Part shown: positions 2,702 through 30,256 of the stretch, one piece after another
How positions within the stretch are numbered: the stretch's first letter is position 1
How the letters are laid out: each line of letters opens with the position of its first letter
Origin: a virus
Lineage: Duplodnaviria; Heunggongvirae; Uroviricota; Caudoviricetes
IMG/VR virus record: IMGVR_UViG_2563366827_000006
Coordinates: 1-30,256 of that record
Reading direction: 5' to 3' (one strand)
Length of the DNA: 30,256 bases
Made by a program: the position numbers and the translations under genes
The notes under the pieces: model-generated
What the model saw: only the letters and a program-made list of their open reading frames with translations
Told to the model about the DNA's origin: nothing
Database searches by the model: none

Positions 2702-3605
2702 TCGCCCTCCTGAGAGACGGGATTTACGTGCATCCAGTGCATCACGCATGACGGTGATCGCATCGGTGCTGTTAACAAGTTCATCAGCCAGTCCGGCATC
2801 AATGGCCTCCTGACCGCTGTACACTGCAGCCTCGGTATCCAGCACAGCCTGCACGGACAGGCCGGTATATGCCGACACCTTCTGCGCAAACATCTGGCGG
2901 GTTGCGTCCATCCGGGACTGCAGTGTCTCCCGGACGTCATCCGGAAGATGGCTGTAGGGGTTGCCATCCACCTTATGGCTGCCGCTGTAAATCAGCGTGA
3001 TTTCCACGCCCTGTTTCTCCAGCGCAGCACCGTAATTACTGTGAGCCATCATGACGCCGATGGAGCCTGTCCGGGCGGTCTGCGTGACCAGACGCCGGGA
3101 GGCGGCACTGGCAAGCAACTGACCTGCACTGCAGTTCATGTCGTTGGCAAGCGCCCATACCGGTTTTATGTCACGCACACGGGCGATGATGTCAGCGCAG
3201 TCAAATGCCCCCGCCACCATCCCGCCGGGCGTGTCCATATCGAGCAGAATGCCGTCCACCATCGGATCGCTGGCAGCCTGTTGCAGACGGGCGATAATGC
3301 CGTTGTAACCGGTCATCCCCGAGTACGGCTGCAGCGCCCGCGTCCGGCTGACCAGCGTGCCGGACACCGGCAGCACGGCGATGCCGTTCATGACCTGATA
3401 ACTGCGGGCCTGTCGTGGTCCGTCATCATCACCGGATAATGCCAGCGTCGCGAGTGCCTCCTGGGCAGCCAGGCTGTCGCCGGACACCGCATCCGTCAGG
3501 CGGCTGATCCCAAGCTGGCCTGCAAGCGCACAAAAGAAAACCCGCGCATAGGCGGGTTCAAGCATCAGCGGCTCATTAAAGGCCATGCTGGCAATATGCG
3601 GGAGA

Positions 3606-3625
<20 letters not shown>
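2306..3625 (-). CDS. C: Head maturation protease / minor capsid protein C (GTG start)
   Basis: ORF 2306-3760 contains VTAELRNLPHIASMAFNEPLMLEPAYARVFF… matching lambda gpC (439 aa); GTG at 3625-3623 preceded by GGAGGAG RBS; overlaps B 3' end as in lambda. Confidence 0.88.
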
Positions 3626-7306
<3,681 letters not shown>

Positions 7307-19123: not shown

Positions 19124-19669
19124 TCATATTGCCCCCAGCATGGTGGTGACCATCGCCATCAATGGACCAGCCAGGTCCGGGTCCACACGAAACATCGACA
19201 CAATGCCTTCACTCATCTCCTTCAGTTTCTGGTGGCGTGGTGCGTTGAGAATGACAGCCTGTTTTGCCTCACTGAGTTCCTTTTCCATTTCAGCCAGCCG
19301 AGCCATGAAGCTATCCTGCTCAACCAAGTGGCCGCGATATTCCAGCGGTAGTACCGCCAGAATTGCCGGGGTCAATTCACGCACGTTATTTCGGTATTTT
19401 TCAGAATCGAATTTGTTATCGAGGAAGCGGAACAGCTTCTGGCGTGCACGGCTGACATCATCAGGGAAATCGATGGTGCCGCCGCCCTGTGCTCGATACT
19501 CATTCACAATGAGTGCGGCAACGACATCCTGATTATCTTCAGCCGACCAGGCGCGGACGGCATCACGGATTTTTTCGTGGCCTGGCACCTGTTTTGTTTG
19601 AGAACGATTTATCACCGCTGTCGGGCTAAATCCGCTAGTCTGTTGGTATGTAAGTGGTTGCATAGTCAT
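19124..19669 (-). CDS. YdaT-family protein occupying the cII position (putative CII-like lysogeny regulator)
   Basis: 181-aa ORF; segment …VNEYRAQGGGTIDFPDD…LTPAILAVLPLEYRGHL… resembles remembered Rac YdaT; sits between cro-like gene and O. Confidence 0.55.
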   Translation of the reverse strand: MTMQPLTYQQTSGFSPTAVINRSQTKQVPGHEKIRDAVRAWSAEDNQDVVAALIVNEYRAQGGGTIDFPDDVSRARQKLFRFLDNKFDSEKYRNNVRELTPAILAVLPLEYRGHLVEQDSFMARLAEMEKELSEAKQAVILNAPRHQKLKEMSEGIVSMFRVDPDLAGPLMAMVTTMLGAI

Positions 19670-19693
19670 TGCCTTATCAGTTAACGCCGCAGT

Positions 19694-19921
19694 TTAGGCG
19701 GCAGAATTACTCGCGTTAAACAATGGTGCGAGGTCGGGACGAATATCTGCTGGTTTAATCTTTCCACCAGTGGCTGAGACAATTTTCATTACATAGCGGG
19801 CATCAATTCCGCCACCGTGTAGCCAACGCCAAACAGTGGGTTGGGCTACACCGCATAGATCTGCCAGTCGTTTTTGACTACCTGTAATACTGATTGCGAG
19901 TTGAATGGTTTGATTTGTCAT
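19694..19921 (-). CDS. Cro-like HTH repressor (YdaS/Cro family)
   Basis: ORF 19694-19927 begins with TTG; ATG at 19921 with AGGA RBS gives 75 aa MTNQTIQLAISITGSQKRLADLCGVAQPTVWRWLHGGG…; HTH motif; divergent from CI-like gene. Confidence 0.75.
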   Translation of the reverse strand: MTNQTIQLAISITGSQKRLADLCGVAQPTVWRWLHGGGIDARYVMKIVSATGGKIKPADIRPDLAPLFNASNSAA

Positions 19922-20031
19922 TATCAATTCCTATTGGTATTGCAATGAACAGATAATAGCAATGCGTATTAACCCATTCAATAGCAAAACGTGTTTTGAC
20001 CATCAATACGCAAGCGTATAAATTAAAACTT
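19922..20031. promoter_or_regulatory. Immunity control region between divergent cro-like and cI-like genes (expected pR/pRM and oR operators)
   Basis: 110-bp AT-rich intergenic region with repeated AATAGCAA(T/A) motifs (~19955-19965, ~19981-19989) and inverted repeat TACGCAAGCGTA at 20007-20018. Confidence 0.6.
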
Positions 20032-20724
20032 ATGAAAAAAGAAACTCTTGCTGATCGCTTAAACCTAGCGATGGAACAATCTGGAATGTCTCAAGGCGCT
20101 CTTGCAAAGGCGTCTGGCGTAGCTCAACCCACAATCTGGAGACTGACAAGCGGCAACGCGCGCGGCTCAACAAAAATTGTTGAAATAGCTAATGCATTGG
20201 GTGTTCGAACAGAGTGGCTCTCATCAGGCATAGGCCCGATGAGAAATGACGGTCAACAATCAGGAAAGCCTGCTGTCAACCATTCCAAATACTTCAAGAT
20301 TGACGTTCTTGATATAGAAGTCAGTGCTGGGCCGGGTGTCATCAACCGTGAGTTTGTAGAAGTCCTACGCTCGGTTGAGTACTCGTTTGACGATGCTCGT
20401 CACATGTTCGATGGCAGGAAGGCAGAAAATATCCGCATCATTAACGTACGCGGTGACAGCATGTCAGGAACGATCGAACCAGGTGATCTTTTGTTCGTTG
20501 ATATCACTGTTAAATCTTTCGACGGTGATGGTATCTATGCGTTTCTGTACGACGACACAGCCCATGTAAAGCGCCTGCAAATGATGAAGGATAAGCTGCT
20601 GGTTATCTCTGATAACAAGAGCTACTCACCGTGGGACCCGATCGAGAAAGACGAGATGAACCGGGTGTTTATCTTCGGTAAGGTTATTGGGAGCATGCCG
20701 CAGACATATAGGAAGCATGGTTAA
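20032..20724 (+). CDS. CI-like prophage repressor (N-terminal XRE-type HTH, C-terminal LexA-like S24 autopeptidase domain)
   Basis: ORF 19996-20724 begins with TTG; ATG at 20032 gives MKKETLADRLNLAMEQSGMSQGALAKASGVAQPTIWRL…; Ala-Gly site in EVSAGPG, Ser in RGDSMSGT and Lys in HVKRL form the S24 motifs. Confidence 0.88.
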   Translation: MKKETLADRLNLAMEQSGMSQGALAKASGVAQPTIWRLTSGNARGSTKIVEIANALGVRTEWLSSGIGPMRNDGQQSGKPAVNHSKYFKIDVLDIEVSAGPGVINREFVEVLRSVEYSFDDARHMFDGRKAENIRIINVRGDSMSGTIEPGDLLFVDITVKSFDGDGIYAFLYDDTAHVKRLQMMKDKLLVISDNKSYSPWDPIEKDEMNRVFIFGKVIGSMPQTYRKHG

Positions 20725-20846
20725 AGTGAGGCTAAAAAACAGTTACAGCAATAGGCCTGTTGTTTTTCTTTAAACACGCAGTGTTAAACCGCTCTTTGAG
20801 ATGCGGAGTAATGAGATGGAAGACTTGAATCACATAAGGGTTAGTG

Positions 20847-21596
20847 ATGGAGTGCGTAGCGAGCAGCAATAGTGCAATACCTAATGTCGTTGAGGTAATA
20901 CGTCGCATCAATGAAGGTTCCACTCAGCCATTTCTTTGCAAATGTGATGATGGGCAGTTGTATGTTTTGAAGTCAAAACCATCAATGCCCCCGAAAAATC
21001 TCTTAGCTGAGTTCATTTCGGCGTGTTTGGCTAATGATATCGGCCTTCCTTTACCTGACTTTAAAATCGTATTTGTGCCAGAGGAACTTATAGAGTACTC
21101 ACCTGATCTGCAGCAACAAATTTGTACAGGATATGCCTTTGCTTCATTGTTCATTGACGGTGCAATAGCGTTAACGTTTACGCAGTCAAGAAACGAAACG
21201 ATCATCCCAGTCGAACAGCAAAAATTAATCTATGTTTTTGATAAATGGATATTAAATGCAGACAGAACGCTTACTGACAAAGGTGGAAACGTTAACATCC
21301 TTTATGACATCAGTAACGATAAGTATTATCTGATTGACCATAATCTCTCATTTGATCAGAATGCTGGACCTGAAGATTTTTCTGTGCACGTGTACGGCCC
21401 TGGTAACCGCAAATGGCAATATGATTTAGTGGATCGCGTAGAGTACCGCCAGAGGGTCGTTAACAGTTTACACAAGCTTCCTGCTATCCTTGACGAAATT
21501 CCAGAAGAGTGGATAGTAGATGAGGAGTTTTTACCTTTTGTCTGCACTACGCTAGACAAAGGTGATTGTGATGAATTTTGGAGCGCAATAGAATGA
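20847..21596 (+). CDS. Hypothetical protein with HipA-like atypical kinase-fold motifs (gene 1 of two-gene cassette in rexAB position)
   Basis: ~249 aa from ATG 20847 (AAGGG RBS at 20836-20840; ORF track starts 20844); motif YVFDKWILNADRTLTDKGGNVNIL…YLIDHNLSF resembles HipA-type catalytic loop; kinase assignment is pattern-based, not searched. Confidence 0.55.
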   Translation: MECVASSNSAIPNVVEVIRRINEGSTQPFLCKCDDGQLYVLKSKPSMPPKNLLAEFISACLANDIGLPLPDFKIVFVPEELIEYSPDLQQQICTGYAFASLFIDGAIALTFTQSRNETIIPVEQQKLIYVFDKWILNADRTLTDKGGNVNILYDISNDKYYLIDHNLSFDQNAGPEDFSVHVYGPGNRKWQYDLVDRVEYRQRVVNSLHKLPAILDEIPEEWIVDEEFLPFVCTTLDKGDCDEFWSAIE

Positions 21597-22420
21597 CAAC
21601 TCCATGCCTATATAGCATCGTTCGCTATGCGCCTTATGCGGAGACTGAAGAGTTCGCAAACATAGGCGTACTTCTGTGCGCGCCAAAAGAAAATTACTTT
21701 GATTTCCAGCTCACAAAGCGAAATGACTCTCGTGTAAAGAATTTTTTCCATGATGATTGTATTTTCCCTGTAGCAAAAGACTCAATACAAAGAGAACTAC
21801 AGTTCGCAAAAATGCATGCGACCCAGATTGTTGGACATCAACAACTTGCACAATTCTTCAGATATTTTACAAACAAAAAAGAATCAATTTTTCAGTTCAG
21901 TTCTACGAGAGTGATTCTCAGCGAAAACCCAAAAGAAGAGCTGGCCCGCATTTACAATAAATATGTAAACCACTCTGACTACACAAAAGAGCGCCGTGAA
22001 GATGTTCTAGCCAGAGAGCTAAAACGAAGTATCGATAGAATAGATGGATTGAAGAACGTCTTCAAACAAGCAACCATTGATGGGTATTTCGCAAAGTTCT
22101 CAATGCCATTGGTCGCCAAGAAGCATGACAGGATCCAATGTGCCATCAAACCTCTGGCATTCACTCAAGCTGAACCAGGAAAAATGATGGAGCATAGTGA
22201 TACTTGGGTGATGAGAATAACTCGAGCAGCAGAAGAAAACCTGCTTTCACTTGATGACATTTTATTCACAATTGAAACTCCTGAATCACCAAACTCAGGC
22301 CAAAGCAAAGTTATTGACATCATAAAGAGAACTATGGATGCTAAGAAAATAAATCATATACCTGCATCCAACCACAAAGAAACTATTGATTTTGCAAAAA
22401 AAATACTTCCCCAAGTTTAA
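21593..22420 (+). CDS. DUF3037-like protein (gene 2 of two-gene cassette, translationally coupled)
   Basis: ATG at 21593 overlaps gene-1 stop (ATGA); N-terminus MTTPCLYSIVRYAPYAETEEFANIGVLL matches my recollection of the DUF3037 N-terminal signature; ~275 aa. Confidence 0.55.
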   Translation: MTTPCLYSIVRYAPYAETEEFANIGVLLCAPKENYFDFQLTKRNDSRVKNFFHDDCIFPVAKDSIQRELQFAKMHATQIVGHQQLAQFFRYFTNKKESIFQFSSTRVILSENPKEELARIYNKYVNHSDYTKERREDVLARELKRSIDRIDGLKNVFKQATIDGYFAKFSMPLVAKKHDRIQCAIKPLAFTQAEPGKMMEHSDTWVMRITRAAEENLLSLDDILFTIETPESPNSGQSKVIDIIKRTMDAKKINHIPASNHKETIDFAKKILPQV

Positions 22421-22455
22421 AATTTATTTTTGTATGTGATATTCCTTATTAATAA

Positions 22456-22482
22456 CCCGGCCACCGTGCCGGGTTTTCTTTT
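22456..22482 (+). terminator. Rho-independent terminator after the two-gene cassette (CCCGGC-caccgt-GCCGGG followed by TTTTCTTTT)
   Basis: GC stem plus T-run 36 bp downstream of the 22420 stop. Confidence 0.7.
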
Positions 22483-22760
22483 GCCTCCCCTCATCACACA
22501 AACCGCTCAAAAAACCACCACAACCCCGCTTCAGTTATCGCTATGCGATGCAAGTCACAAAATTAATTCTTTTTGCTATCAAACATTTAATATCAAAACA
22601 CATCTAACAATAGCAATAAGTATTGATACCACCAATAGCAATAGCTATTATCACCATATCGCAACAACACAACGATACGGCAACCACCTGATTCACCGTT
22701 GCGATGACCGCTTAGATCCGCAGCTTGGTTTCAGCAGGCTCCGGGGAGTGCGAGGGGTGA
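22483..22760 (+). promoter_or_regulatory. Putative pL/oL region (leftward early promoter and operators)
   Basis: Non-coding; carries the same CAATAGCAAT-type motifs seen in the cI-cro intergenic region (22608-22618, 22633-22649, the latter with palindrome AATAGCTATT); position equals lambda pL/oL. Confidence 0.5.
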
Positions 22761-22925
22761 AACGGACGCGTGAACGTCGGTGTGACCAGCTGAAATCAAC
22801 TCAACACTTCATACCTCAGTTGCTTCAACGAGGCGACTTAGTTATGACAACCGGCGGCCATCCACCGCCAGATACTGCGCAACCCCTTATTTGTTCAGCA
22901 GCCCAGCTTACGGGCAGGAGTTTTT

Positions 22926-23132
22926 ATGGTTCATCAACATTATGGAACGCAGACCGTTAATCGAGGTGCGGTCATGCCAGGAATGCTGGTCAAACACAAA
23001 GATGGTACCTGGACTGCATCAGCTAATTTACGCGGACGGCTTTATCTGCATCGCGGCATCGAGCGCACTTATACCCGTGATTTGCTCGTGGAAGTTTTTC
23101 TCGACGGACGCGGTAACGGCCTGAATCACTAA
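22926..23132 (+). CDS. Hypothetical small protein (68 aa) at the kil/cIII position upstream of gam
   Basis: ATG preceded by AGGAG at 7 nt; [68 protein letters not shown]; no recognised homolog. Confidence 0.55.
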
Positions 23133-23207
23133 TCCCCTTTCCTGTTTTCCTAATCAGCCTGGCATTTCGCGGGCGATATTTTCACAGCCATTTTCAGGAG
23201 GTCAGCC

Positions 23208-23504
23208 ATGAACGCTTATTACATTCAGGATCGTCTTGAGGCTCAGAGCTGGGCGCGTCACTACCAGCAGATCGCCCGTGAAGAGAAAGAGGCAGAACTG
23301 GCAGACGACATGGAAAAAGGCCTGCCCCAGCACCTGTTTGAATCGCTATGCATCGATCATTTGCAACGCCACGGGGCCAGCAAAAAAGCCATTACCCGTG
23401 CGTTTGATGACGATGTTGAGTTTCAGGAGCGCATGGCAGAACACATCCAGTACATGGTTGAAACCATTGCTCACCACCAGGTTGATATTGATTCAGAGGT
23501 ATAA
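23208..23504 (+). CDS. gam: Gam, host RecBCD inhibitor (short GamS form only)
   Basis: 98-aa [47 protein letters not shown]… matches lambda GamS; AGGAGG RBS upstream. Confidence 0.93.
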
Positions 23505-26137: not shown

Positions 26138-26740
26138 TCATTCAGTATCATCACGCGCGGTCTGTGCATATGTCACTACCGCACCTAATGTATTAATTTT
26201 CTTTTCAACATAGATAATATTATCGTACTCATAATTGCCATACGGATAGCAAATGCGAATATTCTCATGTAGATCGGGGTCATCCACCTCAGCTCCAGAA
26301 CAACTTTTTGAACTACCGGAAGTATACCGATACGGTGCAACATAAGACGATGTCTCTCCAGGCAAAAAATAAGTTAGTGTTGTAAGGGGTATAATCAGAA
26401 AAAATCCAGAAAATATGCACATCCCTGCATAAACCTTAAGGTATGCTGACAGACTCTTCCAGCCGTTTTGTTTTACTATCCCCTTCTTAACCCAAAACAG
26501 AGATAACAGAAAAGCTATTCCCATGCTAAACAGAATGTAATAGTGGGATATACTCTGATTAAGAAACGTGACCCTGTAGATATCTGCCCGCCACCAGAAG
26601 AAAAGGAAAATAAAGATCAGCCCTGAAACTGTCATGCAAATCAAATAAGGATACGAATCTTTTTTCATGTTTAGCGCCCATAAAATTTTTCCTGCCCCGG
26701 ACAAATTTACCATCCATTTTTTGCGCAGAAAATAGCTCAT
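26138..26740 (-). CDS. Hypothetical integral membrane protein (multiple TM helices; opposite-strand moron; start codon uncertain)
   Basis: 200-aa ORF with hydrophobic segments (LICMTVSGLIFIFLFFWW, YYILFSMGIAFLLSLFWV, VYAGMCIFSGFFLIIPLTTLTYFL) and a Cys/Tyr-rich C-terminal tail; AT-rich; no SD at any candidate ATG. Confidence 0.55.
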   Translation of the reverse strand: MSYFLRKKWMVNLSGAGKILWALNMKKDSYPYLICMTVSGLIFIFLFFWWRADIYRVTFLNQSISHYYILFSMGIAFLLSLFWVKKGIVKQNGWKSLSAYLKVYAGMCIFSGFFLIIPLTTLTYFLPGETSSYVAPYRYTSGSSKSCSGAEVDDPDLHENIRICYPYGNYEYDNIIYVEKKINTLGAVVTYAQTARDDTE

Positions 26741-26952: not shown

Positions 26953-27753
26953 ATGACTATCCACTTTCACGGCAGCCCAATATGGGGGGATGAGCATGCC
27001 CCTACAGATATGCTGATTAAAGCCCTTTACCGTGATGGTGGGGCTTTTGTTTCATTTGCCAGACCAGAGCAGATGAAAAAGATTGCCATGTTCCCTTGTG
27101 ATATACGCCTTGATAACGGTGCTTTTAGCGACTGGATGAAAGCATTAAAGAAAGGCACTCCGGTAGACTGGAGTAAGAGACGAGCAAAATTCTACGACTT
27201 TGTTGGGAAGTGGTTCAGCAGAATTGAATGGTTTCTTATACCTGACGTTATCGAAGGGACAGAGGCAGAAAACGACGAGCAGATTGAGTTGGTTCCTGAT
27301 TGGCTAAAATCAAAAGCGGTTCCGGTCTGGCATACCGACGAATCAATTGAACGTCTTTTACGCCTTTCTGGCAAATTTGAATGGGTGGCGATTGGATGCT
27401 GCGGCCCACACAGGAACATACGCTCTAAATGGTGGGAACAGAGAATGGATGAAGTTTTCACTGAGCTTTATATCAATCGTAATTTGAAAGTGAAAATTCA
27501 TGGTCTTCGAATGCTCGACGTGAGAGTTCTTGGTATGTATCCGTTCGCCAGTGCGGATTCTACTAATGTTGCTGTTAACGTACCGAAGACAGAGAAGCGA
27601 TTTCCTGAGATTACCGACAAACTGGCACGTACAGCTGTACTTCGCGCTGCTATTGAAAAGGTGCACCCGCCATCGATATCAGCATGGGTAGACAGAAAGA
27701 TGAGAGAGCCGGCGCAAGCCGGTTTTTTATTTGAATTCACCGACGCCGCTTAA
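26953..27753 (+). CDS. Hypothetical protein (266 aa); weak, unverified resemblance to TGT/DpdA-type transglycosylase motifs
   Basis: ORF with GGGGA RBS; motifs …IRLDNGAFSDW… and …HGLRMLDV… loosely recall TGT catalytic Asp motifs (…DSGGFQ…, …GMFD…); own AT-rich upstream region. Confidence 0.5.
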   Translation: MTIHFHGSPIWGDEHAPTDMLIKALYRDGGAFVSFARPEQMKKIAMFPCDIRLDNGAFSDWMKALKKGTPVDWSKRRAKFYDFVGKWFSRIEWFLIPDVIEGTEAENDEQIELVPDWLKSKAVPVWHTDESIERLLRLSGKFEWVAIGCCGPHRNIRSKWWEQRMDEVFTELYINRNLKVKIHGLRMLDVRVLGMYPFASADSTNVAVNVPKTEKRFPEITDKLARTAVLRAAIEKVHPPSISAWVDRKMREPAQAGFLFEFTDAA

Positions 27754-27810: not shown

Positions 27811-28155
27811 ATGTCAGATTTGGCTATGAAGGTTTTGAAATGGCAATCGACCGGCGATGTCGGCATCAGTAGCGCAACTCTTGCCTCAATCGCATGTGGA
27901 CTGAAAAAGAATATCTATGGTCATCACTTCGGCGCTCCACATGACGCAGCAGATTTCAGACGATGCGTTGCACTTGTTGAGCAGATTCCAGAAATCAGAG
28001 ATTCATTCAACAAGGTTGCAAAGCGCGTTCCGGCATTCAAAGGAATCCTCAACGAATGGGATTCCCTCGTTGCTCTGTTGAAGTCTGAAATGAAGATACA
28101 CGGAAACAAAGCACCAGAGACTTACAGAAGAATCAGCGAGCTACGCAAGGACTAA
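27811..28155 (+). CDS. Hypothetical protein (114 aa), unknown function
   Basis: ORF MSDLAMKVLKWQSTGDVGISSATLASIACGLKKNIYGHHFGAPHDAADFRRC… with GGAG RBS 9 nt upstream; terminator follows. Confidence 0.55.
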   Translation: MSDLAMKVLKWQSTGDVGISSATLASIACGLKKNIYGHHFGAPHDAADFRRCVALVEQIPEIRDSFNKVAKRVPAFKGILNEWDSLVALLKSEMKIHGNKAPETYRRISELRKD

Positions 28156-28212
28156 CCCGCCTCACACTCGATGAGGCCTGTTCATTGCTCAATGATATCC
28201 AGACCTACCATC

Positions 28213-28236
28213 GCCGCATCAATGCGGTTTTTTATT
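28213..28236 (+). terminator. Rho-independent terminator (GCCGCA-tcaa-TGCGG followed by TTTTTTTATT)
   Basis: GC stem plus 7-T run downstream of the 114-aa gene. Confidence 0.7.
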
Positions 28237-28243
28237 GCCTGAT

Positions 28244-28259
28244 TTGCAGGTTCGATTCC
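28244..28259 (+). other. tRNA-Arg (argW) T-arm-like fragment TTGCAGGTTCGATTCC, not part of an intact tRNA gene
   Basis: 16/16 match to the T-stem/loop portion of argW as I remember it (…AATTGCAGGTTCGATTCCTGCAGGGGACACCA); sequence diverges immediately after. Confidence 0.5.
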
Positions 28260-28278
28260 CTATTTGGAGATAGCACTC

Positions 28279-28479
28279 ATGCAACACGAACTACAACCTG
28301 ATTCACTGGTTGATTTGAAATTCATCATGGCTGATACTGGCTTCGGTAAGACCTTCATCTATGACCGGATTAAGTCCGGCGACCTGCCTAAAGCCAAAGT
28401 TATCCACGGACGAGCAAGATGGTTATATCGTGACCATTGTGAATTCAAAAATAAGCTCTTAAGCCGCGCCAATGGGTAA
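28279..28479 (+). CDS. torI: TorI-like excisionase / recombination directionality factor (AlpA/Xis family winged-helix)
   Basis: ORF 28264-28479 begins with TTG; ATG at 28279 (GGAGA RBS) gives 66 aa MQHELQPDSLVDLKFIMADTGFGKTFIYDRIKSGDLPKAKVIHGRARWLYRDHCEFKNKLLSRANG, matching remembered KplE1 TorI; adjacent to an argW core repeat. Confidence 0.75.
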   Translation: MQHELQPDSLVDLKFIMADTGFGKTFIYDRIKSGDLPKAKVIHGRARWLYRDHCEFKNKLLSRANG

Positions 28480-28551
28480 AATAGCGGGTAAAATATTTTT
28501 CACATCTAAAAAATACCATTCCAATCAATCCCCTGCCGCGCCAAGTAGATG

Positions 28552-28567
28552 CCTGCAGGGGACACCA
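28552..28567 (+). other. attR: Prophage attachment-site core: 16-nt copy of the 3' end of tRNA-Arg argW (CCTGCAGGGGACACCA), prophage/host junction
   Basis: Exact match to the remembered last 16 nt of argW including discriminator and CCA; no upstream tRNA body, so it is a core repeat rather than a tRNA gene. Confidence 0.65.
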
Positions 28568-29008
28568 GATACCCTTCAAACGAAATCTACCTTCACCCCG
28601 TAAAAGATGGGTTTGGCAGCACACTTGCCTTATATCTACTCATTTTTACTGCAACAGGTTGAAATCTCAGCACTGTCAGAAAGCGCTGATGACTAAACAG
28701 CCCTGGGCCGGGCGATGTAACCATCACACAGAATCCTGATAGCGAAATATGGCGTGACTCGATACTTCACTCCGCAATGCATTCCTTGATGAATTCGCAG
28801 GACCGTGATACACGGGACAGGTCACTGAATGACGACAATGTCCTGGAAATCAGCGAACCGCGCATCTGAAGTACATTTGAGCGACTGTACCAGAACATGA
28901 ATGAGGCGTTTGGATTAGGCGATTATTAGCAGGGCTAAGCATTTTACTATTATTATTTTCCGGTTGAGGGATATAGAGCTATCGACAACAACCGGAAAAA
29001 GTTTACGT

Positions 29009-30256
29009 CTATATTGCTGAAGGTACAGGCGTTTCCATAACTATTTGCTCGCGTTTTTTACTCAAGAAGAAAATGCCAAATAGCAACATCAGGCAGACAA
29101 TACCCGAAATTGCGAAGAAAACTGTCTGGTAGCCTGCGTGGTCAAAGAGTATCCCAGTCGGCGTTGAAAGCAGCACAATCCCAAGCGAACTGGCAATTTG
29201 AAAACCAATCAGAAAGATCGTCGACGACAGGCGCTTATCAAAGTTTGCCACGCTGTATTTGAAGACGGATATGACACAAAGTGGAACCTCAATGGCATGT
29301 AACAACTTCACTAATGAAATAATCCAGGGGTTAACGAACAGCGCGCAGGAAAGGATACGCAACGCCATAATCACAACTCCGATAAGTAATGCATTTTTTG
29401 GCCCTACCCGATTCACAAAGAAAGGAATAATCGCCATGCACAGCGCTTCGAGTACCACCTGGAATGAGTTGAGATAACCATACAGGCGCGTTCCTACATC
29501 GTGTGATTCGAATAAACCTGCATAAAAGACAGGAAAAAGTTGTTGATCAAAAATGTTATAGAAAGACCACGTCCCCACAATAAATATGACGAAAACCCAG
29601 AAGTTTCGATCCTTGAAAACTGCGATAAAATCCTCTTTTTTTACCCCTCCCGCATCTGCCGCTACGCACTGGTGATCCTTATCTTTAAAACGCATGTTGA
29701 TCATCATAAATACAGCGCCAAATAGCGAGACCAACCAGAAGTTGATATGGGGACTGATACTAAAAAATATGCCGGCAAAGAACGCGCCAATAGCATAGCC
29801 AAAAGATCCCCAGGCGCGCGCTGTTCCATATTCGAAATGAAAATTTCGCGCCATTTTTTCGGTGAAGCTATCAAGCAAACCGCATCCCGCCAGATACCCC
29901 AAGCCAAAAAATAGCGCCCCCAGAATTAGACCTACAGAAAAATTGCTTTGCAGTAACGGTTCATAAACGTAAATCATAAACGGTCCGGTCAAGACCAGGA
30001 TGAAACTCATACACCAGATGAGCGGTTTCTTCAGACCGAGTTTATCCTGAACGATGCCGTAGAACATCATAAATAGAATGCTGGTAAACTGGTTGACCGA
30101 ATAAAGTGTACCTAATTCCGTCCCTGTCAACCCTAGATGTCCTTTCAGCCAAATAGCGTATAACGACCACCACAGCGACCAGGAAATAAAAAAGAGAAAT
30201 GAGTAACTGGATGCAAAACGATAGTACGCATTTCTGAATGGAATATTCAGTGCCAT
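29009..30256 (-). CDS. cscB: LacY-family oligosaccharide:H+ symporter, most likely sucrose permease CscB (host chromosomal gene)
   Basis: 415-aa ORF MALNIPFRNAYYRFASSYSFLFFISWSLWWSLYAIWLKGHLGL… with LacY-family motifs (DKLGLKK, FDQQ, GPKNALL, HAIEVP, FKY); start codon is the last 3 nt of the window. Confidence 0.8.
   Translation of the reverse strand: MALNIPFRNAYYRFASSYSFLFFISWSLWWSLYAIWLKGHLGLTGTELGTLYSVNQFTSILFMMFYGIVQDKLGLKKPLIWCMSFILVLTGPFMIYVYEPLLQSNFSVGLILGALFFGLGYLAGCGLLDSFTEKMARNFHFEYGTARAWGSFGYAIGAFFAGIFFSISPHINFWLVSLFGAVFMMINMRFKDKDHQCVAADAGGVKKEDFIAVFKDRNFWVFVIFIVGTWSFYNIFDQQLFPVFYAGLFESHDVGTRLYGYLNSFQVVLEALCMAIIPFFVNRVGPKNALLIGVVIMALRILSCALFVNPWIISLVKLLHAIEVPLCVISVFKYSVANFDKRLSSTIFLIGFQIASSLGIVLLSTPTGILFDHAGYQTVFFAISGIVCLMLLFGIFFLSKKREQIVMETPVPSAI

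Follow-up and report, generated by a model that had tools for sequence, protein, structure and literature searches.

Canonical HipBA of Escherichia coli K-12 combines an atypical Ser/Thr-kinase toxin of PI3/4-kinase-like fold, which phosphorylates glutamyl-tRNA synthetase, with a co-transcribed partner that neutralises it, and in phage lambda the rexA-rexB genes form a two-gene cargo that is expressed in the lysogen from between cI and pL and acts against superinfecting phages. A third system, HipAD, is said to have received its name from Brenes and Laub in Cell Host Microbe in 2025. Here we analysed a two-gene cassette in the virus sequence IMGVR_UViG_2563366827_000006 (Caudoviricetes; the 30,256-nucleotide stretch as a whole is referred to as the window), in which hipA (DS-6A; 20847-21596, plus strand) and hipD (DS-6B; 21593-22420, plus strand) follow the gene of a CI-like repressor. 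We are highly confident that the two genes make up HipAD, an anti-phage defence system that also goes by the names DS-6 and, as a PADLOC candidate, PDC-M66, and that a lambdoid prophage carries them in its cI-pL interval as cargo expressed in the lysogen.

Identity with the published HipAD (DS-6) system

Both proteins of the cassette were identical to published ones over their full length. In a script comparison with the sequences of DefensePredictor Table S8, the first open reading frame (ORF) equalled WP_000389051.1 at 249/249 residues and the second equalled WP_000210934.1 at 275/275. Gene order, gene overlap and prophage origin were the same as in DS-6, and in phage PhiR5_1 (GenBank PV340545.1) the two genes occupy the same slot, between cI and kil, and are labelled 'HipA toxin' and 'HipD antitoxin'. 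The HipAD proteins of PhiR5_1 and of E. coli H9Ecoli showed no difference from those of the window, in which the cassette adjoins another immunity type. A search with PADLOC models also led to an existing candidate, with PDC-M66A matching gene 1 (E 6e-15, kinase residues 12-170 only) and PDC-M66B matching the adjacent gene 2 (E 3.8e-16, nearly full length); PDC-M66 is a bioinformatic candidate label that does not imply a mechanism. Because both proteins are identical to those of a validated and named system, the pair is not undescribed, as the first-pass annotation had supposed, but is the already characterised HipAD/DS-6. RefSeq names the two proteins 'HipA family kinase' and 'DUF3037 domain-containing protein', and the PHROGs matches were to families of unknown function only (3162 and 5137). 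NCBIfam gave a family match for neither protein, and the main text of the Payne 2024 preprint mentions neither PDC-M66 nor HipA.

The DefensePredictor study (Science 2026) validated DS-6 and described DS-6A as a HipA-related kinase and DS-6B as a DUF3037 protein with a weak DUF1829 match; as told in the same paper, the system was also discovered independently and was renamed HipAD by Brenes and Laub in 2025 (PMC13092281). Protection was measured from a low-copy plasmid. In the first screen of Table S7, DS-6 cut plating of phage Bas1 by 3.9 logs, and in the mutant assay of that table Bas1 gave 3e6 plaque-forming units (pfu) on the empty vector, 20 pfu on DS-6 and 4e5 pfu on DS-6(D139A), with values of 3.9 and 5.2 for the -log efficiency of plating of Bas1 on DS-6 (PMC13092281). 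The catalytic Asp139 of the kinase has in this way been shown to be needed for protection by proteins identical to those of the window. The suggestion of a kinase-based anti-phage module was thus borne out, as the identical DS-6 blocks Bas1 by about 4-5 logs in a D139-dependent manner. In addition, the authors predicted a DS-6A/DS-6B complex with AlphaFold3 (interface predicted template-modelling score, ipTM, 0.76-0.79) and a weaker binding of DS-6B to DNA (ipTM 0.67), and they proposed a toxin-antitoxin-like mechanism (PMC13092281).

The system is therefore a known one, and since the discovery, naming and validation of HipAD date from 2025-2026 the locus has low weight as a discovery. Its value is one of calibration: a reading made from the sequence alone had correctly recognised a genuine defence system along with its domains and catalytic motif.

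Kinase, partner protein and mode of action

A toxin-antitoxin-like, kinase-dependent defence is the mechanism best supported by the available evidence, part of which comes from a homologous pair. DUF3037 is strongly associated with HipA-like kinases, in a pairing that PADLOC names PDC-M66, and the pair found beside Retron-Sda1 is a stand-alone defence against phage Bas51 which is lost when the kinase is deleted and becomes toxic when the DUF3037 gene is deleted (PMC12548924). The Retron-Sda1 pair thus resembles HipAD in its two-domain pairing, in defending on its own, in requiring the kinase and in the toxicity of DUF3037 loss, and it differs in its host and in adjoining a retron reverse transcriptase and noncoding RNA (PMC12548924). 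In the scheme that we propose, read-through from the cI promoter would produce hipA and hipD, coupled by their ATGA overlap, on a transcript ending at the backbone terminator, and HipD would bind HipA and keep the kinase inactive. Infection by a sensitive phage would lift the inhibition by HipD, possibly through its C-terminal nuclease-like domain, which is probably non-catalytic and nucleic-acid-binding. The freed HipA would then phosphorylate an essential target, of the host or of the phage, and so halt phage production, most likely by way of growth arrest (abortive infection). Several points weigh against this scheme. In the sources consulted, what has been demonstrated of the mechanism is the requirement for kinase activity, and HipA release, the nature of the target and abortive infection are deduced; the toxicity of DUF3037-gene loss was shown for a homolog and not for the window allele; and the read-through from pRM is likewise a deduction.

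The kinase-like effector or toxin HipA (249 aa) matched Pfam HipA_2 (PF20613) from end to end (E 9.7e-77). This was its sole Pfam match at E<=1, HipA_N (couple_hipA) and HipA_C being unmatched. An AlphaFold2 (AF2) model was built with 48 homologs (predicted local distance difference test score, pLDDT, 90; predicted template-modelling score, pTM, 0.89) and compared with the PDB by Foldseek. The top match was human PI4KIIalpha (E 4e-6, template-modelling score, TM, 0.62), followed by the Helicobacter pylori kinase CtkA (E 5e-6, TM up to 0.58), and Shewanella HipA (4pu5) appeared only at rank 22 (E 7.7e-4, TM 0.44). A sequence search of the PDB gave a meaningful match for neither protein of the cassette and found no PDB HipA for gene 1. 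The modelled fold places HipA in the PI3/4-kinase/HipA-like group, as a compact protein that is not a canonical HipA. The family match over the full length and the PI4K/CtkA/HipA-type fold agree with the HipA-like atypical kinase that had first been proposed, and the catalytic-loop-like motif FDKWILNADR had also been read correctly: the Asp of 'NADR' is D139, the residue whose mutation removes the published defence. Residues K42, E55, D139, N148, N150, D164, H165 and N166 were invariant in the 48 homologs, a set that fits an active kinase.

The likeness to HipBA lies in the PI3/4-kinase-like fold and in the catalytic and Mg-binding Asp residues, represented here by the invariant D139 and D164. 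The window kinase is however much shorter than the approximately 440 aa of canonical HipA, and its partner is a downstream DUF3037 protein rather than an upstream HipB with an XRE-type helix-turn-helix (HTH); the gene upstream is the phage CI. Membership of canonical HipBA was rejected on account of the unmatched HipA_N and HipA_C and the lack of an upstream HTH HipB.

The distant relation to HipA makes a different substrate class plausible, and HipA might act directly on a protein of the infecting phage, giving a non-abortive exclusion and not the host poisoning known from canonical HipA. The small size of the kinase, its unmatched HipA_N and HipA_C and its best folds (PI4KIIalpha and CtkA) are in line with such a route, as are the DS-6 data rows available to us, which concern Bas1 only. 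We nevertheless consider it unlikely, because deletion of the DUF3037 partner in the Sda1 homolog is toxic without any phage, so that the kinase would have a host target, and because the DS-6 authors lean towards a toxin-antitoxin or abortive mechanism (PMC13092281). The same toxicity in the Sda1 homolog (PMC12548924), together with the GenBank labels of toxin and antitoxin and the occurrence of distant homologs in apparently non-prophage chromosomal contexts, could suggest that the pair is mainly an addiction module that stabilises the prophage, with defence as a side effect. This is distinctly unlikely in our view, since the identical proteins protect by 4-5 logs against Bas1 from a low-copy plasmid, since sister phages hold other defence cargo such as GevT/GevA in the same slot, and since the pair is counted among defence systems by DefensePredictor as well as by PADLOC.

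Within the toxin-antitoxin-like defence that we prefer, HipD (275 aa) is presumed to be the antitoxin or a regulator. The DUF3037 domain claimed for it at first was recovered by Pfam (PF11236, residues 7-125, E 7.6e-24). Pfam gave no match for residues 126-275 and none to an HTH, and a Pfam scan of all 64 HipD homologs found no consistent C-terminal family. The AF2 model built with these homologs (pLDDT 91, pTM 0.56) has two domains with a low-confidence linker at 128-130, and the second (about residues 132-275) looks PD-(D/E)xK-like, with a predicted alpha-beta-beta-beta-alpha-beta topology. Foldseek against the PDB returned nothing for HipD at E<=0.001, and the N-terminal DUF3037 domain was left without an assignable PDB match; the topology of the C-terminal domain points to it as the region that was hit by sub-threshold matches. 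At motif positions taken from the secondary structure and not from a structural alignment, the canonical beta-2 Asp position, after P172, is Leu or Phe (173) in 64/64 homologs, and the (D/E)xK position reads A184-I185-K186, with Ala in 59/64. Conserved residues are E136, K186, E/D200, H201 and W205. From the model we infer a fold like that of restriction endonucleases, in which the positions so assigned lack the canonical acidic residues, and the domain is probably a non-catalytic, nucleic-acid-binding or sensing module. The weak DUF1829 match and the AlphaFold3 DNA prediction, both published, are in line with this reading. For the DUF3037 protein of Retron-Sda1, the C-terminal region was reported to be like the DNA-binding protein of retron type III-A1 (PMC12548924). 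That HipD would itself be the effector, a nuclease, with the kinase merely regulating it, is very improbable given the substituted acidic positions, the lack of a Foldseek match at the above threshold, and the combination of toxic DUF3037 deletion with loss of defence on kinase deletion, the pattern that marks a kinase toxin paired with a DUF3037 antitoxin. A more specific form of the toxin-antitoxin-like defence would have the degenerate nuclease-like domain of HipD recognise phage DNA or a replication intermediate and so free the CtkA/PI4KII-like HipA_2 kinase to phosphorylate a target other than GltX; we offer this tentatively and regard it as rather unlikely in all its parts.

An exchangeable slot between cI and pL

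To delimit the cassette, we aligned the window to the phages PhiR68_2, 4A7 and PhiR47_2, which have the same cI and other cargo. Homology to these phages ends at 20720-20723, at the cI stop codon (20722-20724), and restarts at 22451-22456, at the foot of the terminator stem. The breakpoints thus define a swapped unit of about 20724-22455 that consists of the spacer, hipA, hipD and a 30 nt tail, and since the phages with differing cargo align again from 22451-22456, the terminator is part of the conserved backbone. Other cargo in the slot includes a GevT toxin with a GevA antitoxin and a hypothetical protein of 353 aa paired with an ASCH-domain protein, which confirms the view of the first-pass annotation that the interval between cI and pL is a cargo hotspot. 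A third alternative cargo consists of two hypothetical proteins. The slot cassettes of the sister phages are overlapping gene pairs (PhiR47_2 2727-4155, 4A7 2706-4122, PhiR68_2 2719-4174), and those with the ASCH pair and with the two hypothetical proteins have no functional annotation in the sister-phage records.

RexAB and the window cassette are alike in being two-gene, lysogen-expressed cargo in the cI-pL slot that seems to lack a strong promoter of its own, and in acting against superinfection. They differ in that Rex is a membrane-depolarising system, whereas the window cassette relies on kinase biochemistry. Membership of RexAB was rejected, as Pfam, PHROGs and PADLOC gave no Rex match and only the genomic position is common to both.

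The identical cassettes of PhiR5_1 and E. coli H9Ecoli are found in a different setting, with homology to the window starting only at 20168, inside cI. These sequences share the C-terminal domain of cI with the window and differ in the N-terminal domain of cI, the operators and cro. The mosaic junction at 20168 implies that the same HipAD cargo is tied to at least two immunity specificities. The 122-bp spacer between cI and hipA (20725-20846) moves along with the cassette and is, like both genes, 100% identical in H9Ecoli.

We surveyed the prevalence of the cassette in 5,426 complete E. coli genomes. The full cassette was present in 284 of these, every copy being chromosomal, and the identity was >=99% in 306 of the 308 matching records (a number that includes terminator-only matches). 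All complete copies (284/284) lay directly downstream of the same cI C-terminal domain, and only 46 of the 284 cassette-bearing genomes had the exact immunity region of the window. About 1,900 further E. coli genomes had this cI C-terminal domain without the cassette, with homology stopping at the cI stop. Homologs of both proteins were common in Enterobacterales and reached Pseudomonas, Idiomarina and sphingomonads. At three loci in the distant Proteobacteria Sphingomonas, Pseudomonas and Idiomarina, the kinase again precedes DUF3037 with a 4-nt overlap; the surroundings of these loci do not clearly correspond to prophage immunity regions. What is new here are the exact breakpoints, the cI linkage, the conserved order and overlap, and the proposed HipD C-terminal fold, the genomic part being modest. 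For work on HipAD, possibly useful context comes from these breakpoints, from the association with a single cI C-terminal family, from the fact that a promoter of its own is unrecognisable, and from the putative degenerate nuclease-like domain of HipD.

Expression signals and neighbouring genes

The two genes are coupled as first described, on the same strand and directly 3' of the CI-like repressor gene, through an ATGA overlap at 21593-21596 in which the hipD ATG (21593-21595) overlaps the hipA TGA (21594-21596). The hipA gene starts with ATG, just behind an in-frame GTG at 20844, and is preceded by an AAGGG ribosome-binding site within the spacer. The GC content of the cassette is 40.1%, lower than in the window (48.8%) and in the flanks (50-53%), in agreement with the lower value that had been estimated by eye relative to the lambda backbone. 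The cassette itself contains minus-strand ORFs and consensus sites only at the level of chance; promoter-like sites numbered 8 (6.6 expected) and terminator-like sites 4 (3.4 expected).

The cI ORF spans 19996-20724 (plus strand); the homologous CI annotated in phage 4A7 points to the ATG at 20032 as the likely start. The encoded repressor (20032-20724) has an HTH and an S24 autopeptidase domain (Pfam HTH_3 1.5e-6, Peptidase_S24 1.5e-18). A consensus scan of the oR-like region found a pRM-like site at 19996-20024 (plus strand, 9/12) and a pR-like site from 19981 to 19953 (minus strand, 9/12). The -10 hexamer of the pRM-like site ends at 20024, 7 nt ahead of the cI ATG, which suggests that the cI transcript is leaderless, as in lambda. 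The scan found no sigma-70-like site of >=8/12 in 20450-20860, and the spacer contained neither a terminator nor a stable structure, its fold being no better than that of shuffles (z = +1.2). Since no promoter or terminator separates the cassette from cI, read-through from the cI promoter is the simplest reading, and hipAD is probably transcribed in the lysogen in this manner, as are the lambda rexAB genes.

Divergent from cI lies the Cro-position repressor gene (19694-19927, minus strand), which encodes a YdaS-type HTH protein (Pfam YdaS_toxin, PF15943, 1e-14, with weak HTH_3 and P22_Cro matches) and is annotated in related phages as Cro or as a transcriptional repressor. The gene in the CII position, in the 19124-19927 region (minus strand), has a YdaT domain (PF06254, 8e-30). 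The YdaS/YdaT pair of the Rac prophage, toxins by their Pfam label, thus occupies the Cro and CII regulatory positions here.

Downstream of hipD, the cI-hipA-hipD unit ends at an intrinsic terminator at 22454-22484 (plus strand), composed of a hairpin at 22454-22475 and a T-run to about 22484. The stem has 8 bp, of which 6 are G-C, and the folding energy of -14.2 kcal/mol (z = -3.4) was reached by 0/200 shuffles. In a scan this hairpin was the sole convincing terminator nearby. The terminator proposed at 22456-22482 is hence real, with slightly wider limits, and belongs to the backbone rather than to the cassette. About 140 nt past the hairpin, an oL/pL-like region (22608-22656, plus strand) contains two direct operator-like repeats of 24 nt (22608-22631 and 22633-22656) over the best sigma-70-like match in 19600-23300, TTGATA-17-TATTAT (22623-22651, 10/12), which makes the earlier assignment of pL/oL plausible. 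The interval from the pL-like promoter to the kil-like ORF (22657-22925) has no N-like ORF. A search for an N gene, nut site or put-like RNA after pL gave no Rfam match even at E 1, and the leader folded no better than shuffles. The kil-like ORF (22926-23132) is followed by gam, bet and exo.

The integrase gene is absent from the window and is presumably located at the other end of the prophage. Three ORFs between a TraR/DksA-like gene and torI (26138-26740, minus strand; 26953-27753, plus strand; 27811-28155, plus strand) are without Pfam matches, are labelled hypothetical in RefSeq and may represent additional cargo of the prophage. The right end of the prophage (28200-30256) carries a TorI-type excisionase, and about 530 bp beyond it lies a host gene for an oligosaccharide transporter of the LacY family within the major facilitator superfamily (29009-30256, minus strand).

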